The translations under genes were made by a program, and so were the position numbers. The notes beneath the pieces were generated by a model, which saw nothing but the letters and a program-made list of their open reading frames with translations, ran no database searches and was not told where the DNA came from. Positions 12,255 to 17,010 of a stretch of DNA of 64,000 nucleotides are shown here, in pieces. The first letter of the stretch is position 1, and each line of letters opens with the position of its first letter. This DNA is from Dehalococcoidia bacterium (GTDB lineage Bacteria; Chloroflexota; Dehalococcoidia; SM23-28-2; WHTN01): the NCBI GenBank assembly GCA_009377715.1, contig WHTN01000004.1, forward strand, positions 4,753 to 68,752, in the 5' to 3' direction.

Positions 12255-13200
12255 TCAATTTAAGAAGTTTATAGCTCTTTGAGCTAGACACCCCTCATCG
12301 CATCCACATGTCGAAGTTCTGCGTTGCTCTAAGCGACACTGGCCTAAAAACGGCGATAACTCTAGTACTTCTCCCAGAGACTTACGAAACACGTTATCGT
12401 AATCAGACTCAGAAGGCCTCGGCTCAACGTTGTGACAAGGACTAATCCAACCGTCCCATCGCACCACAAGCTCTTTAGCGATCGCCACGCATTTGTTCGG
12501 CTCACGATAGCGAGCAAGTGTCGCCTCTCCAAGTCGAACGCGAACATGAGCTTTATCACCGATCATATCGATATGCTCTCTGAGTAGCTCGAAAGGCACA
12601 AAAAAGGCTGTCTCCCTTGGTAGCTGCTCTGCCTTGCGGCACACTCGTCAATATGCGTAGTTCATGAATTCCCAATTCATCGCAAAGAGTTGCTGCTTGG
12701 AGTAGATCAGTCAAGTTGCCGGGGTATGCGAAGAAGGTACACGTAACATTGATTCCAGCCTTGACCATATTTTTAACTGCGAGACATGTCGCTTCAAAAC
12801 TCCCTTGTATCCGAGTTAATGCATCGTGACGAGCAGCCAGCCCAGAATGAAGAGATACACGGCACAGATCGACCCAATTCTTCATCTCAAGCGCTCTTGA
12901 GGAGTCAATCGGAACCAGCCGATATGACGAGTCGAAAAGGACACCCATTGAGAACAATATGGTATTTAACCCGCAGACCTTTGAGCACTCTAGAATTGAG
13001 TGTAGTGATTCATGAAGCAACGGTTCGCCACCTGTAACGATTAGGCTTTGCCCACCTTGGTCTTTAAATTCCTTAATGAGTTTGCAGGCAACGGTATGAT
13101 CCATTTTCTGAGTTCTGCGTAACCCGGCTGATACAGAGCAGTGCCCGCACGCTAATGGACACTGCTGCGTAATCTCCAACCGTAAAGTATCAATTGTGTA
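12255..13200 (-). pseudogene. radical SAM / SPASM-domain enzyme, frame-disrupted (ORF-track pieces 12556..13257 and 12255..12644)
   Basis: CPLACGHC (CxxxCxxC) and TGGEPLL in N-terminal piece; Cys-rich twitch/SPASM-like C-terminus (WDGWISPCHNVEP...CGCDEGC) in another frame; shift within ~12600-12645 next to an A6 run at ~12600-12605; start trimmed to the internal Met. Confidence 0.7.
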
Positions 13201-13777
13201 CATCTGCGGTACTCGATAATAATTGGCGTATGGCAGTGATTGCTTCAAGCCTTGCATCTGTCGAAACTACGACCAATTCGCCAACTTGAAGATCGCACTC
13301 GCGTGCTACCAACCGCTGCAGTCTTGCGAGTCCCACGAAATTGCTATATGCCTTACTGTGGTAATGTTGACTGCGGTACGTTGCTGTCATTATGAGTTCA
13401 CCATCGCGCTGGTGAAATTGAATCGATGAGAGACATGGAAACCCTCTGTTCGCCGCAGCTGAAGTTGATGGCCTACCGAAAAGAATTGGCCGTGGATCGA
13501 CTCCACTTCGGCGCAACGAACGAATGATTCTTACAATTTGATTGACCTTGCCACTCCCGTCATAGTCAACCATTCGCACAAAATAATTGCGGCTATCCAT
13601 TTTCCTTATAAGGCGCTGCGCAGCCTTTTCCCAATTGCTTGCCTCGATCACGGAAATCGGCATTATAGTACGGGCTACGGCACGCATACTGTGTGAGGCG
13701 TCTAGCGATAAAGCCCGATCTATAAGGACACCGCGCTCATCCTCAAAAGACGAAGGTCTTTCTATGCTTACTACCAA
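13190..13777 (-). CDS. thymidylate-synthase-fold protein, 3' portion of a gene interrupted by the IS1595-family insertion
   Basis: alignable by eye to ThyA core: ..GFPCLSSIQFHQRDGELIMTATYRSQHY..SNF..ARECDLQVGELVVVSTD.. vs E. coli ..[46 protein letters not shown]..; begins at TTG 4 nt from the IS left end. Confidence 0.6.
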   Translation of the reverse strand: MVVSIERPSSFEDERGVLIDRALSLDASHSMRAVARTIMPISVIEASNWEKAAQRLIRKMDSRNYFVRMVDYDGSGKVNQIVRIIRSLRRSGVDPRPILFGRPSTSAAANRGFPCLSSIQFHQRDGELIMTATYRSQHYHSKAYSNFVGLARLQRLVARECDLQVGELVVVSTDARLEAITAIRQLLSSTADVHN

Positions 13778-13854
13778 ATTAGGGTAATAATCTAGTTGAC
13801 TCAGTAGAAAAGTCGCTCTATGATTGCTTTAATCTTATTAGCCTGTGGGAGATT

Positions 13855-14610
13855 ATGCAGTCATTTAGCGGTTTTGATTTGTTCGGTTTGGGGCAATTCA
13901 TCACCGCGCTAACGGAAGGGGAAGGGCAGCGCATAATCCCAGAAGACACGCGCCATCAGATGGAGCAGGCTGCGCGGCAGGCCCGGCGGACATGCATTCT
14001 TTGTGGTTTTCCCGCAACGGCTGCTGGACTCGCAAGACTAATTGCCGACCTGCAAGCTCCAATAACTGAGGAGCAGGTCACGATAGGAGGGAGGTATTGC
14101 TTCCAGGCTCTAACGGATGAAGCAGGCGCTAGATTATTTCTTTACATGGGCGAGAGTCGTAGGTATTACTATGAGTCCCCATCAGAAGGATGGAACGATG
14201 TGTTAGAGAAGTTTCCGTCAGCGCGGCTCGACATAGAGGAAGCCAGCAAATGTTACGCATTAGCCCGGTATACAGCTTCTGTGTTCCATTCGATGCGGAT
14301 ACTAGAGCCAGCGTTGAATGCGCTTGCTGGCGAGTTTGCTGTGTCTACGGATAGGGCAAACTGGCATAACATCCTAGATCAGGTCGTTGCCGCTATTGAA
14401 CAAAAGAGTAAGGCGCAAGGGGCTGGGTGGACAGACCAACAGTTCTATTCGGAGGCGGCTGTAGACCTACGTTTCTTCAAGGACGCGTGGCGCAATCACG
14501 TAATGCACGTACGAAAGACCTTTGATGAAGAAAGAGCGTTAGGTATTTACCAGCGGGTCCGCGACTTAATGAGGCACTTATCTACCAAACTAAGCGAGCC
14601 ACCCCTATGA
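13855..14610 (+). CDS. passenger gene of the IS: hypothetical protein with a possible HEPN-like R-x4-H motif (WRNHVMH)
   Basis: 251-aa ORF between IR-L and transposase; the single R-N-x3-H motif near the C-terminus is the only HEPN evidence. Confidence 0.5.
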   Translation: MQSFSGFDLFGLGQFITALTEGEGQRIIPEDTRHQMEQAARQARRTCILCGFPATAAGLARLIADLQAPITEEQVTIGGRYCFQALTDEAGARLFLYMGESRRYYYESPSEGWNDVLEKFPSARLDIEEASKCYALARYTASVFHSMRILEPALNALAGEFAVSTDRANWHNILDQVVAAIEQKSKAQGAGWTDQQFYSEAAVDLRFFKDAWRNHVMHVRKTFDEERALGIYQRVRDLMRHLSTKLSEPPL

Positions 14611-14759
14611 CTTGTCCCGCACCTCATCCTTCGGCTCTCGTATTGCTTCCTTCGGCACGCGGACTATCTTGCGCGTCAACCGCTCAAATCGTTCCCATGC
14701 CGTCTCCGGCGTGCCCTTCGGTTTCTTGGGGTCATTTGCCATGTTTCCCCCTTCCCTGT

Positions 14760-15719
14760 CTACGTTGGCGTCGTAGCGTCTCCTATAAGCTCTGCGTAGG
14801 TCAATCGCTTGCCTGTAATCCTCTTAGCGAGCCGCAGGAAGCGCTCGCCGTCGGTTGCCCTTCGACTGTTGAATCGAAAGGCTTCTTCATCAAGATAACG
14901 GAAAAGGTGGAACGGCTCTACGCTTACATAGGTGCCTTTGATAGCACGTTTCAAGAGGCTCCAGAAATTCTCAATGCCGTTGACGTGAATCCTGCCTTCG
15001 ACGTACTTCTCCGCGTGGTCAATAACACCATGAATATAATCCATCTTCAAGTCATCATAAGAGCGAAACGCGTCTGTAAAGACCTCAGCGCCTTCCTTAG
15101 CCTGACTGCGGACTTGCCCGCTCAGGGCATGGCGGCGACGATTCGCTACGATGGTAGTCCTGACGGTGCTGTGTCCGTCTGGCCCGTGACGCTCCAAAAG
15201 GCCCATGACTGCAACTTTGCCAGTGGCCCAGGTACCAGTAATCTTCTCCGCTCGCTTGTCCTTGTGCATGAAGCGGGCCTTGCCACCGATAAAGGTTTCA
15301 TCGACTTCGATGATGCCGTCCATCTTAGTGTAGTCATCGGACTGCATAGCGAGCCGTATGCGATGGAGCATAAACCAAGCGGTTGTTTGAGTCACGCCGA
15401 GAGCACGGGCCAATTCATAGGAGCTAATACCGTTCTTGTCGTTGGCAATAAGCCACAAGGAAGGAAGCCACCTGTCCAGACCGATAGGGCTGTCCTCAAA
15501 GATAGTCCCTACCTTGACCGAGAACTGCCGTTTGGCGTGCTTGTCCTTGCACTCCCACAGTTGGCGAGTAGAGATGTAACGCGCATCGGTTCGGCCACAA
15601 TTAGGGCACGCGATAACGCCATCGGGCCATCGCATCGCGAGCATAAACTTTTGACAAGTCTCAGGGTCAGAAAAGAACTTAATCGCTTCGAGAAGGGTTG
15701 CGGGCTGGCTGTTATTCAT
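14760..15719 (-). CDS. IS1595-family transposase (ISXO2-like, N-terminal zinc ribbon + DDE domain)
   Basis: 319-aa ORF; ..MRWPDGVIACPNCG.. zinc-ribbon and ISXO2-like DDE region. Confidence 0.9.
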   Translation of the reverse strand: MNNSQPATLLEAIKFFSDPETCQKFMLAMRWPDGVIACPNCGRTDARYISTRQLWECKDKHAKRQFSVKVGTIFEDSPIGLDRWLPSLWLIANDKNGISSYELARALGVTQTTAWFMLHRIRLAMQSDDYTKMDGIIEVDETFIGGKARFMHKDKRAEKITGTWATGKVAVMGLLERHGPDGHSTVRTTIVANRRRHALSGQVRSQAKEGAEVFTDAFRSYDDLKMDYIHGVIDHAEKYVEGRIHVNGIENFWSLLKRAIKGTYVSVEPFHLFRYLDEEAFRFNSRRATDGERFLRLAKRITGKRLTYAELIGDATTPT

Positions 15720-15784
15720 GGCTTTTACTCCTTACAGCCACATTATAACCCAGATAGCTTACTGAGTCAACTAGGTTATTACCC

Positions 15785-15945
15785 AAATTAGATACTCGAT
15801 GATCCTTGGTTTCGAGAAGACAGCTTATAGCTGTTTGCCACGCAGGCCATATATCTGTTTCCGGAATATACAAAGACTGTTCATGGTACAACCTCTTTAT
15901 CTGGTATAGCTTTGAAGGCGAGGCTATCTTGAAGGGCTGATTCAT
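15785..15945 (-). other. displaced 5' fragment of the ThyA-fold gene (in frame with 13777 once the IS and one AAATTA copy are removed)
   Basis: ORF 15712..15945 runs from ATG into IR-R; its frame is continuous with the TTG at 13777 across the insertion point; reconstructed product ~248 aa (ThyA is 264 aa). Confidence 0.45.
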
Positions 15946-16933
15946 CCATTCTTAGTCGTTTGGCCATCGACTGTGAAAGCACTCTGTAATAATTCAGTGG
16001 TGTCGTCTCCCCTTTGGGTGGCGTCATTTTTTTTAGGACTCTAACTGTTGAGTCATTAACTATACCCAGAGCACGCAGCCGGGCGAGTGCTGCTGCGTGG
16101 CTAATTCCATAAGAAGTTTCCATTTCAGCCAGGCTATCCAATATGAAACCTGATGCTAGATATGCTTGAATAGTTTGTCGGGGCAATAGAAGGGCTGAAG
16201 CGAAGACATCTGCTCGATATTCCATGTGCGAACGTGGGCCAGGGCGTTCCCAGCCCGCATCACAAACCGTTGTCCGTAATTCACGATCCATCAGGTAATG
16301 AGCTAATTCATGGGCAAGTGTAAAGCGCTGACGGGAACGCGGCTGGTTATAGTTGACGATTATTGAGGCAAACCTCTTCTCGTCTACGACCATACACCCT
16401 GCAACCCTGGACTTACTCGGAAAACGGGCCCCGAAGACGGCTAGGCCTAGGCGGGTTAAAAGGCCTGAAAAACCGCTTATTGGTTCATTTGGTGGGATAC
16501 CCAAATGTTTACGAATCCTGCGCGCTAGCAACTCACCGGCTTCTGTATCTGCACGAAGTGCTAAATTACGGGTTACATTCGGCGTCTCGCAGGAATCGGA
16601 GACTTGCGAAAGAGAATCATGCAAGGTAAGAAACCAAGATAAGACAGCTTGATCCTCGGGGCTAACAGGTCCAGACCGAAACCGGAAAAGATTGCTACGA
16701 CTGGCCTTTACCGATACAGTTGGTCGGGGCTTAAGTAACTCTACGACAGGACAATTTAATAGTTTGGAAATTACTGAAAGCTCGGAGGCAGTAACGCTAC
16801 GCGATCCTTGCTCAATTCGACTTATCGCAGATCTATCGACACCAAGCAACTCGGCGAGTTGTGCCTGGCTCAGGCTTTGACGATAGCGTGCTTCTTGGAT
16901 ATTGTATCCAATATCCTTATCCGAAACTCTCAT
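15881..16933 (-). CDS. fused XRE-family HTH + ImmA/IrrE-family zinc metallopeptidase (COG2856-like) regulator
   Basis: HTH ..LSQAQLAELLGVDRSAISRIEQG..; HEXXH as FTLAHELAHYLMD; start placed at internal Met (MRVSDKD) because upstream is AT-rich promoter-like DNA abutting the leuS stop. Confidence 0.8.
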   Translation of the reverse strand: MRVSDKDIGYNIQEARYRQSLSQAQLAELLGVDRSAISRIEQGSRSVTASELSVISKLLNCPVVELLKPRPTVSVKASRSNLFRFRSGPVSPEDQAVLSWFLTLHDSLSQVSDSCETPNVTRNLALRADTEAGELLARRIRKHLGIPPNEPISGFSGLLTRLGLAVFGARFPSKSRVAGCMVVDEKRFASIIVNYNQPRSRQRFTLAHELAHYLMDRELRTTVCDAGWERPGPRSHMEYRADVFASALLLPRQTIQAYLASGFILDSLAEMETSYGISHAAALARLRALGIVNDSTVRVLKKMTPPKGETTPLNYYRVLSQSMAKRLRMDESALQDSLAFKAIPDKEVVP

Positions 16934-16940
16934 TTCGGAT

Positions 16941-16970
16941 ATTATAGGCCGGTTATGATCATGGATGCAA
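16941..16970 (-). promoter_or_regulatory. candidate sigma70-type promoter for the XRE-ImmA gene (leaderless transcript)
   Basis: minus strand TTGCAT (16970-16965), 18-nt spacer, TATAAT (16946-16941), ATG 7 nt downstream. Confidence 0.35.
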
Positions 16971-17010
16971 TATTTATTTAAGAGTTTATGTGCGCATTCC
17001 ACACAGGAAA

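Follow-up and report, generated by a model that had tools for sequence, protein, structure and literature searches.

A large family of HEPN-like proteins carried as cargo by small IS1595-family insertion sequences

Introduction

What kind of protein does a 2-kb insertion sequence (IS) carry besides its transposase, and whom does that protein serve? The question arises from a 64,000-nucleotide stretch of DNA, here called the window, from a Dehalococcoidia bacterium (assembly GCA_009377715.1, contig WHTN01000004.1, positions 4,753 to 68,752), in which an open reading frame (ORF) for a 251-aa protein lies beside the gene for an IS1595-family transposase. A sequence-only reading of the window had regarded this ORF as a passenger of the IS and, from a single R-x4-H motif, tentatively as HEPN-like. 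Abortive infection, toxin-antitoxin (TA) and CRISPR type III and VI systems use HEPN RNases as effectors; the presence of these RNases on mobile elements is of an already known kind, and time and again a new HEPN family has proved to be a functional module of defence or toxicity. Passenger-carrying IS1595 elements are a known kind as well, reported in ISfinder and by Siguier et al. 2009.

Here, we describe a HEPN-fold protein with an invariant Rx4H motif that forms a single mobile unit with an IS1595 transposase, a pairing that recurs across phyla. From its fold, its relatives and its company we infer, with a probability of roughly 0.6, that the protein is a conflict-type RNase, of the abortive infection or toxin-like kind, travelling as cargo of the element.

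Results

The passenger gene lies within a complete IS1595-family element

The element is a 2,001-bp IS1595-family insertion (13783-15783) that reads, from left to right, as left inverted repeat (IRL), HEPN-like gene on the plus strand, a small ORF and the transposase gene on the minus strand, and right inverted repeat (IRR), with the HEPN-like and transposase genes convergent (Table 1). The two repeats are 24 nt long and differ at one position (GGTAATAA[T/C]CTAGTTGACTCAGTA), the number of such repeats expected by chance in 64 kb being 0; a pattern search of the window finds IRL and IRR alone, and there is no second copy of the element. The transposase matches DDE_Tnp_IS1595 (PF12762, 1e-34), Zn_ribbon_IS1595 (PF12760, 1.8e-11) and the NCBIfam model NF033547 (1e-52). 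In silico deletion of 13783-15791, the element together with one copy of the duplication, joins two minus-strand fragments into an uninterrupted ThyA-like ORF of 248 aa. Thus, the inverted repeats, the 8-bp duplication and the restored host ORF together establish a true insertion with exact boundaries, and the description of the ORF as a passenger of the IS holds. The interrupted host gene occupies 13190-13782 and 15784-15945 on the minus strand (Pfam Thymidylat_synt, 5e-8).

The ends of this IS lineage are of the type GGnnnTAAT...TTGAC, with GGTAATAAT in the window element and GGCAATAATAT or GGCGTTATTAT in relatives. In ISfinder and the 2009 account of Siguier and colleagues, members of the ISNwi1 subgroup are said to have ends of the form ggnnatTAT, a DDEK-type catalytic motif and 8-bp duplications, and those with passengers to span about 1.75-4.75 kb. 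The ends GGTAATAAT would fit this consensus, which makes the window element a candidate member of the subgroup. In its transposase domains, 8-bp duplication, ends, size of 2.0 kb and genes beside the transposase, the element resembles IS1595 elements with passengers. An Rfam scan of the element returned no RNA family, and no terminator-like site was found within it.

Table 1. Features of the element and of its passenger gene (positions in the window)
Feature	Positions	Strand	Basis or remark
Left target-site duplication, 8 bp, CAAATTAG	13775-13782	.	same 8-mer outside the right repeat
Left inverted repeat (IRL), GGTAATAATCTAGTTGACTCAGTA	13783-13806	+	exact-pattern search; this repeat type bounds relatives elsewhere
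Inward sigma-70-like site, TTGACT, 17 nt, TATGAT	13796-13824	+	partly in IRL; 10/12 consensus matches
HEPN-like passenger gene	13855-14610	+	ATG start, 251 aa; two-domain helical protein
N-terminal helical domain, residues 1-110	13855-14184	+	few conserved columns in the 60-sequence alignment; no Pfam match
HEPN domain, residues 120-245	14212-14589	+	AlphaFold2 model, 60-sequence alignment
Predicted catalytic motif Rx4H, R213-N214-H215-V216-M217-H218	14491-14508	+	end of helix 3
Conserved basic small ORF, 45 aa, MANDPKKPKGTPETAWERFERLTRKIVRVPKEAIREPKDEVRDKS	14605-14742	-	gene call in the public assembly
Transposase, IS1595-family DDE, 319 aa, N-terminal zinc ribbon	14760-15719	-	Pfam, NCBIfam
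Inward sigma-70-like site, TTGACT, 17 nt, TATAAT	15742-15770	-	partly in IRR; 11/12 consensus matches
Right inverted repeat (IRR), GGTAATAACCTAGTTGACTCAGTA	15760-15783	-	pattern search
Right target-site duplication, CAAATTAG	15784-15791	.	directly outside IRR

The passenger belongs to a large family

A word-indexed search with the 251-aa protein returned 162 homologues at E<=1e-3, the best non-self match being 50% identical (E=2e-62). When a profile built from 60 homologues was searched against 1.84 billion cluster representatives, 8,473 matched at E<=1e-3, 7,019 at E<=1e-10 and 4,897 at E<=1e-30; the best 150 of the 8,473 were mostly proteins of 250-310 aa, each matched in one stretch over nearly the whole profile. 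This abundance of homologues identifies the ORF as a real gene rather than a chance frame, and the family is large, with about 7,000 clusters at 50% identity. Searches of Pfam, NCBIfam and PADLOC with the 251-aa query gave nothing usable (in Pfam, 0 matches at E<=1). The sole PHROGs match was phrog_32483, a family of unknown function that is also matched by 42 of the 60 family members, and a tblastn search of GenBank phage records found no match. With no matching Pfam, NCBIfam or PADLOC model and no named member, the family appears to be new.

An invariant Rx4H motif in a predicted HEPN fold

The alignment of 60 sequences, in which the query shares 28-48% identity with the others, and the AlphaFold2 model agree on the domain order: a variable helical N-terminal domain is followed by a C-terminal HEPN domain. 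The model is of high confidence, with predicted local distance difference test (pLDDT) values of 95.0 for the full length (computed with this alignment) and 94.6 for the C-terminal domain. Helices span residues 6-19, 30-49, 53-65, 72-91 and 100-107 of the N-terminal domain. In the C-terminal domain, helix 1 (121-135) is followed by a kinked helix 2 (139-160) bearing H145, R148 and E151, an extra helix (170-191), helix 3 (195-217), a loop (218-224) and helix 4 (225-242), which together contain the four-helix up-down bundle core of the HEPN superfamily. The motif WRNHVMH (residues 212-218, nucleotides 14488-14508) falls within the last fifth of the protein and, in the model, runs from the tail of the third core helix into the loop that leads to the last helix.

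Nine residues, F120, H145, E151, W170, K209, W212, R213, N214 and H218, are invariant among the 60 sequences, and H215 is kept in at least 90% of them. Since W212, R213, N214 and H218 never vary, WRNHVMH is not a chance match. In the 2013 survey of HEPN proteins, the catalytic motif lies at the end of helix 3, its R is usually followed by N, D or H, an acidic residue is conserved in helix 2, and inserts occur between helices 2 and 3 (PMC3710099). The passenger family has an invariant polar residue, N214, directly after the conserved R; an invariant acid, E151, in helix 2, where the published Ex3[KR] form is not matched because residue 155 is N; and, between helices 2 and 3, the extra helix carrying the invariant W170.

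Relatives link the family to HEPN models. Pfam HEPN (PF05168), the sole Pfam family matched by many of the 60, is reached at E<=0.1 by 11 of them. Only P0097, which is 40% identical to the C-terminal domain of the query, exceeds the gathering threshold (25.2 bits against a cut-off of 22, over profile positions 9-113 of 117). Further Pfam matches were to NTase_sub_bind (3 members), HEPN_Swt1 (2), HEPN_RiboL-PSP (1) and DUF4145 (1, at E=0.035), all of which we take to be HEPN-related families; no unrelated Pfam family was matched by more than two of the 60. In PADLOC, the 60 members gave weak matches to Csx1 and Csm6 only, which are likewise HEPN proteins. In structural comparisons, the best matches were RnlA and LsoA (scores of 11.3 for LsoA and 10.8 and 10.2 for RnlA), together with AF0298 (10.3), Roquin (9.3, 8.5), DrrA (8.9), HepT SO_3166 (8.6), sacsin (8.3), SsR10 (8.3) and ST0689 (8.2); Csx1, TT1696, MtlR-type proteins, Csm6, HEPN toxins and HepS scored lower. 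A Foldseek search of PDB with the full-length model gave nothing significant, and weak sequence matches in PDB to Dad2 and to designed TIM barrels were set aside as spurious.

The HEPN guess made from one motif is therefore supported by the invariance of R213-N214-x3-H218, by the Pfam HEPN matches of relatives, by the structural matches and by the AlphaFold2 model, which places the motif at the end of helix 3 of a HEPN four-helix core. Neither of the two outcomes that were to refute it, the lack of a HEPN-fold prediction and a motif that varies among homologues, was observed. The Pfam HEPN matches come from relatives, including P0097 above threshold, and not from the query itself. Two narrower assignments that the sequence-only reading had named for checking fell away: DUF4145, with its single match, and the Abi families, since no PADLOC Abi model (AbiD/F, AbiJ, AbiU2, AbiV) was matched. 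Thus, the passenger is very probably a HEPN-fold protein. It is very improbable that it is instead a catalytically inert helical bundle (an adaptor, an HPt-like protein or another four-helix protein) in which Rx4H is a structural coincidence. That the HEPN protein is an active RNase we consider likely; given the intact Rx4H site and E151 in helix 2 of the model, it would most likely be a metal-independent endoribonuclease. We file the passenger within the HEPN superfamily as a separate, undescribed family outside PF05168 proper, and likewise outside HEPN-MNT pairs, RNase LS, DUF4145 and any PADLOC Abi family.

Comparison with characterized HEPN proteins

The canonical HEPN proteins (PF05168; AF0298, 2hsb; ST0689, 1wol; TT1696, 1ufb) differ from the query in three respects: the query lies below detection by the Pfam model, it adds the 110-residue N-terminal helical domain and the invariant H145, W170, K209 and W212, and it lacks an adjacent gene for an MNT partner. 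A search for a pair of the HEPN-MNT type (HepT/MntA) found no nucleotidyltransferase in the element or among the called genes of the related loci inspected. RnlA and LsoA, the anti-T4 toxins of Escherichia coli RNase LS, are only 12-13% identical to the query, which lacks the N-terminal and repeated domains of RnlA as well as a downstream antitoxin gene of the RnlB/LsoB kind; neither the query nor its relatives matched the RnlA/LsoA family in Pfam or PADLOC. On prophage Gifsy-1, abortive infection is brought about by one HEPN protein, HepS, which recognizes a tail-tip protein of the phage and cuts tRNAs in their anticodon loops (PMC13043305). HepS has no detectable sequence similarity to the query, and its carrier is a prophage, whereas that of the query is an IS.

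Conflict-type genes near transposition genes have a precedent in Tn3-family transposons, in which TA pairs, including HEPN/MNT, reportedly lie near the transposition genes and have been proposed to be integrated with the transposition module (PMC7157771). The window element is alike in carrying a conflict-type gene inside a transposon and close to its transposition genes. The Tn3 case involves two-gene pairs in large replicative transposons, whereas here a single HEPN gene without a recognizable antitoxin lies in a 2-kb IS. As far as a literature search reached, no paper links HEPN with IS1595, identifies an IS1595 passenger as a HEPN protein or reports one protein family as the predominant IS1595 passenger.

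The family is linked to IS1595 transposases across phyla

Scanning one genome per species (185,579 species) yielded 220 loci with relatives of the passenger, and the best 80 were taken with their flanks. In 46 of these 80 loci, the relative has an IS1595-family transposase no more than about 2.2 kb away; the downstream side is unassessable in 5 of the 34 unlinked loci, which end within 2.2 kb of the gene. The same passenger thus travels with this kind of IS in other genomes, as the sequence-only reading had asked. The linked transposases are 31-69% identical to that of the window, and the hosts belong to Chloroflexota, Acidobacteriota, Alphaproteobacteria, Nitrospirota, Verrucomicrobiota, Gemmatimonadota and Desulfobacterota and include a Woesearchaeota bin. 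The same pairing occurs in metagenomes in P0044 (38% identical to the query), P0092 and P0010; the last of these is the closest full relative of the window element, with 63% identity in the transposase, 44% in the HEPN protein and 47% in the small ORF, and the same repeat type.

Complete elements, with the two genes enclosed by inverted repeats of this type and by identical 8-bp duplications, were delimited in six loci: L004 (GCATCATT), L015 (ATACCTTG; 3.4 kb), L028 (ACTAAATC), L042 (AAAAGAAA; perfect 25-nt repeats, 2,012 bp), L081 (ATTTCTAA; 4.1 kb) and L112 (ATTATTAT). The repeat core [AT][AT]TATACTTGAC flanks the genes as a pair in 11 further loci. Five loci without a transposase keep the left repeat core upstream of the HEPN-like gene, which suggests decayed elements.

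Does the HEPN protein then serve the element itself, as an accessory RNase that processes or degrades the transcript of the transposase and small ORF, or host RNAs, and so tunes transposition? Such a factor could be expected from the main genomic home of the family (the 46 of 80 loci), from a neighbour-joining tree of HEPN domains in which transposase-linked members are scattered through the entire family (a short alignment of low resolution), and from the position of the gene, which as a rule points toward the transposase operon at a short distance, as in the window. However, orientation and spacing vary: in the 46 loci the transposase lies downstream and convergent in 36, downstream on the same strand in 7 and upstream in 3, and in about 16 loci unrelated extra genes, including dCTP-deaminase-like and DUF3800 genes, intervene between it and the HEPN gene. 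These third genes were considered as a conserved partner and rejected, as they show no mutual similarity. Moreover, many IS1595 elements do without the gene. Related transposases were found in 94 plasmid records, but a family member in just 6; the three plasmid-borne members inspected (H1-H3) all lack an adjoining IS1595 transposase, and the IS1595 elements inspected on plasmids have other neighbours, including a PIN-domain gene. Thus, the HEPN-like gene is not obligatory for the IS1595 family.

Nor is the family confined to ISs. Its members are also found on a phage-like contig (P0002), in a DUF3800 operon (P0014), alone (P0008, P0019) and beside chromosomal housekeeping genes away from any IS. 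P0002 (L002, 643-1821), the closest relative at 50% identity, has a 130-residue N-terminal extension and lies between RuvC and terminase genes. Within the IS lineage, HEPN and transposase identities are weakly correlated (Mantel r=0.18, reached by 5 of 2,000 permutations), a test that neither proves nor excludes long-term co-inheritance because HEPN identities are near saturation (about 30%). The HEPN protein diverges much faster than the transposase, with 27% against 71% identity for L112 and 29% against 66% for L072, and the sister element L111 has the same inverted repeats with different cargo. Cargo in this IS lineage is therefore exchanged, or evolves, far faster than the transposase. Against this evidence, a role as transposition accessory factor appears unlikely. 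The broader idea that the family consists of RNases co-evolved with one IS lineage, expressed from the left-end repeat and serving the element under the control by transposase occupancy that would also govern the transposase gene, is doubtful. Were it to hold, the protein might arrest or kill cells under conditions that threaten the element, or act on RNA so as to promote transposition; it would then be a widespread accessory nuclease of DDE ISs, loosely comparable to TnpB in IS200/IS605.

L112 (315-2419) and L111 (1395-3296) are metagenomic elements with inverted repeats almost exactly those of the window element. The HEPN protein of L112 keeps AWRNKISH, and L111 has a frameshifted transposase and a membrane-like cargo protein of 135 aa. 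Other cargo or neighbours in the lineage are dCTP-deaminase-like, DUF3800 and PIN-domain proteins (L060, 2925-3581; L018, 5554-6294; L120/L121, 2734-3504; L066, 1890-2594 and 7728-8459; L114, 4236-4811). DUF3800 recurs on three independent occasions, in one of which its gene forms an overlapping operon with that of a HEPN-family member. In L092, a 286-aa member (P0092) and a 60-aa small ORF are followed by the IS1595 transposase; in nine other contigs, L093-L101, what comes after the identical 286-aa member and small ORF is an unrelated gene on the plus strand, encoding 389 aa and lacking a Pfam match, which suggests that the transposase was replaced or disrupted.

The small basic ORF, a probable backbone gene of the IS lineage

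In the window, the 45-aa ORF begins 18 nt past the transposase stop codon and overlaps the 3' end of the HEPN gene by 6 nt, which would also suit an accessory role in transposition. Across the lineage, the small ORF encodes 45-60 aa of two sequence types (PFERFERL..K.V.VPK and EQSERF...A) and either adjoins the HEPN 3' end or lies downstream of the transposase, in either orientation. Further examples are found in L112 (1238-1375), L119 (4344-4439), L115 (3660-3806) and L114 (4600-4983).

A small basic protein next to a putative toxin raises the possibility that the two form a TA pair stabilizing the IS by addiction. The proximity is frequent: most elements with a HEPN gene have the small ORF either beside the 3' end of that gene or after the transposase gene. 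It is coupled directly to the HEPN stop codon in L083, L088 and L054, and it persists beside the HEPN gene without a transposase in L070, L051, L026, L019 and L093-L101. However, HEPN-less elements retain it as well, namely L111, the remnants L108 and L110, and the plasmid elements L115 and L114, where it follows PIN cargo. In L015, L044 and L077 other DNA lies between the two genes, and no small ORF of this kind is called beside P0002, P0008, P0014 or P0019, which are relatives found outside ISs. The small ORF matched neither Pfam nor any antitoxin family. An addiction pair is thus quite improbable; because HEPN-less elements keep the small ORF, we rejected it as an antitoxin specific to the HEPN protein and treat it as what looks like a backbone gene of the lineage.

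Promoter-like sites in the inverted repeats

Both repeats contribute to inward-facing sigma-70-like sites (Table 1). The site at IRL lies 31 nt before the ATG of the HEPN-like gene, and that at IRR lies upstream of the transposase ATG, a layout that recurs at the transposase end of 11 related elements. The -35 box TTGAC is the conserved repeat core across the lineage. About 17 nt downstream of it, related elements have the -10-like hexamers TAGAAT, TAAAAT, CAGAAT and GATAAT on the cargo side, and TATACT, TATATT, TATAAT and TATCAT on the transposase side. It is their mirrored placement in the repeats and their recurrence in relatives, not their number, that makes these sites notable. Such mirror-image sites would allow the HEPN gene and the transposase to be co-regulated, as the accessory-factor explanation supposes. 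Judging from the sequence of the repeats, any cargo placed beside the left end could inherit a candidate promoter able to respond to transposase binding.

Discussion

A proposed conflict-type RNase as cargo

In the scheme that we favour, in which we infer RNase activity, promoter use, trigger and biological role alike, the promoter-like site at IRL, if it works, would transcribe the HEPN gene wherever the element lands, and binding of the transposase to the element ends could regulate this expression. Until a signal derived from a phage or from stress triggers it, the RNase would be held in check, probably through its variable N-terminal domain or its state of oligomerization; it would then cut tRNA or mRNA and growth would stop. 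The element might gain through defence of its host or through its own retention. The holding and triggering steps are proposed by analogy with single-protein HEPN systems of other mobile elements (HepS, RnlA/LsoA and Abi-type HEPNs). In favour of mobile cargo we count the inverted repeats with their 8-bp duplication, the restored host ORF, the recurrent linkage to IS1595 transposases, the spread of linked members through the HEPN tree and the promoter-like sites in both repeats. A conflict-type role fits with RnlA and LsoA, toxins directed against phages, being the best matches in structure, with HepS as a precedent, and with the other cargo of the IS lineage (PIN, dCTP-deaminase-like, DUF3800), which is conflict-type as well.

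Several observations weigh against this interpretation. The query itself does not match the Pfam HEPN model, and PDB sequence searches with the query, the full-length profile, the C-terminal domain profile and P0097 returned no HEPN entry. Neither the query nor the 60 members matched a PADLOC defence family beyond the weak HEPN-level matches, and the plasmid-borne family members are labelled 'hypothetical protein' in RefSeq. The number of promoter-like sites in the region (2) equals the shuffled expectation (mean 1.8) for what is a match to consensus only, and the scan used the sigma-70 consensus, from which promoters of the host may deviate. Finally, no neutralizing partner such as MNT was found that would allow a constitutively transcribed toxin to be tolerated.

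Since its fold is defined, its catalytic site predicted and its genomic context clear, the family lends itself directly to testing. Its predominant home in the 80 sampled genomes is one lineage of very small ISs, apparently a new association. This suggests that simple ISs, besides prophages, plasmids and large transposons, may spread immune or toxin functions that are encoded by one gene across distant phyla, and it raises the testable idea that expression of the cargo is wired to the ends that the transposase binds.

The island around the insertion

The element lies in an island (12255-17002) between a CoaD-like gene and leuS, with a GC content of 0.46-0.50 against 0.55-0.61 in the flanks. 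Besides the ThyA-like gene, the island includes a radical-SAM protein with weak similarity to a viperin model (PADLOC pVip, 6.6e-10) and a regulator combining a helix-turn-helix domain with an M78 peptidase (PADLOC RmrA, 4e-29; CapP, 4e-25). The island has the appearance of a defence-type locus for nucleotide modification that the IS has inactivated. On the minus strand, a SPASM-domain ORF of 129 aa (12255-12644) and the radical-SAM ORF of 233 aa (12556-13257) share about 90 nt, read in different frames, which suggests a single frameshifted gene or a sequencing error.

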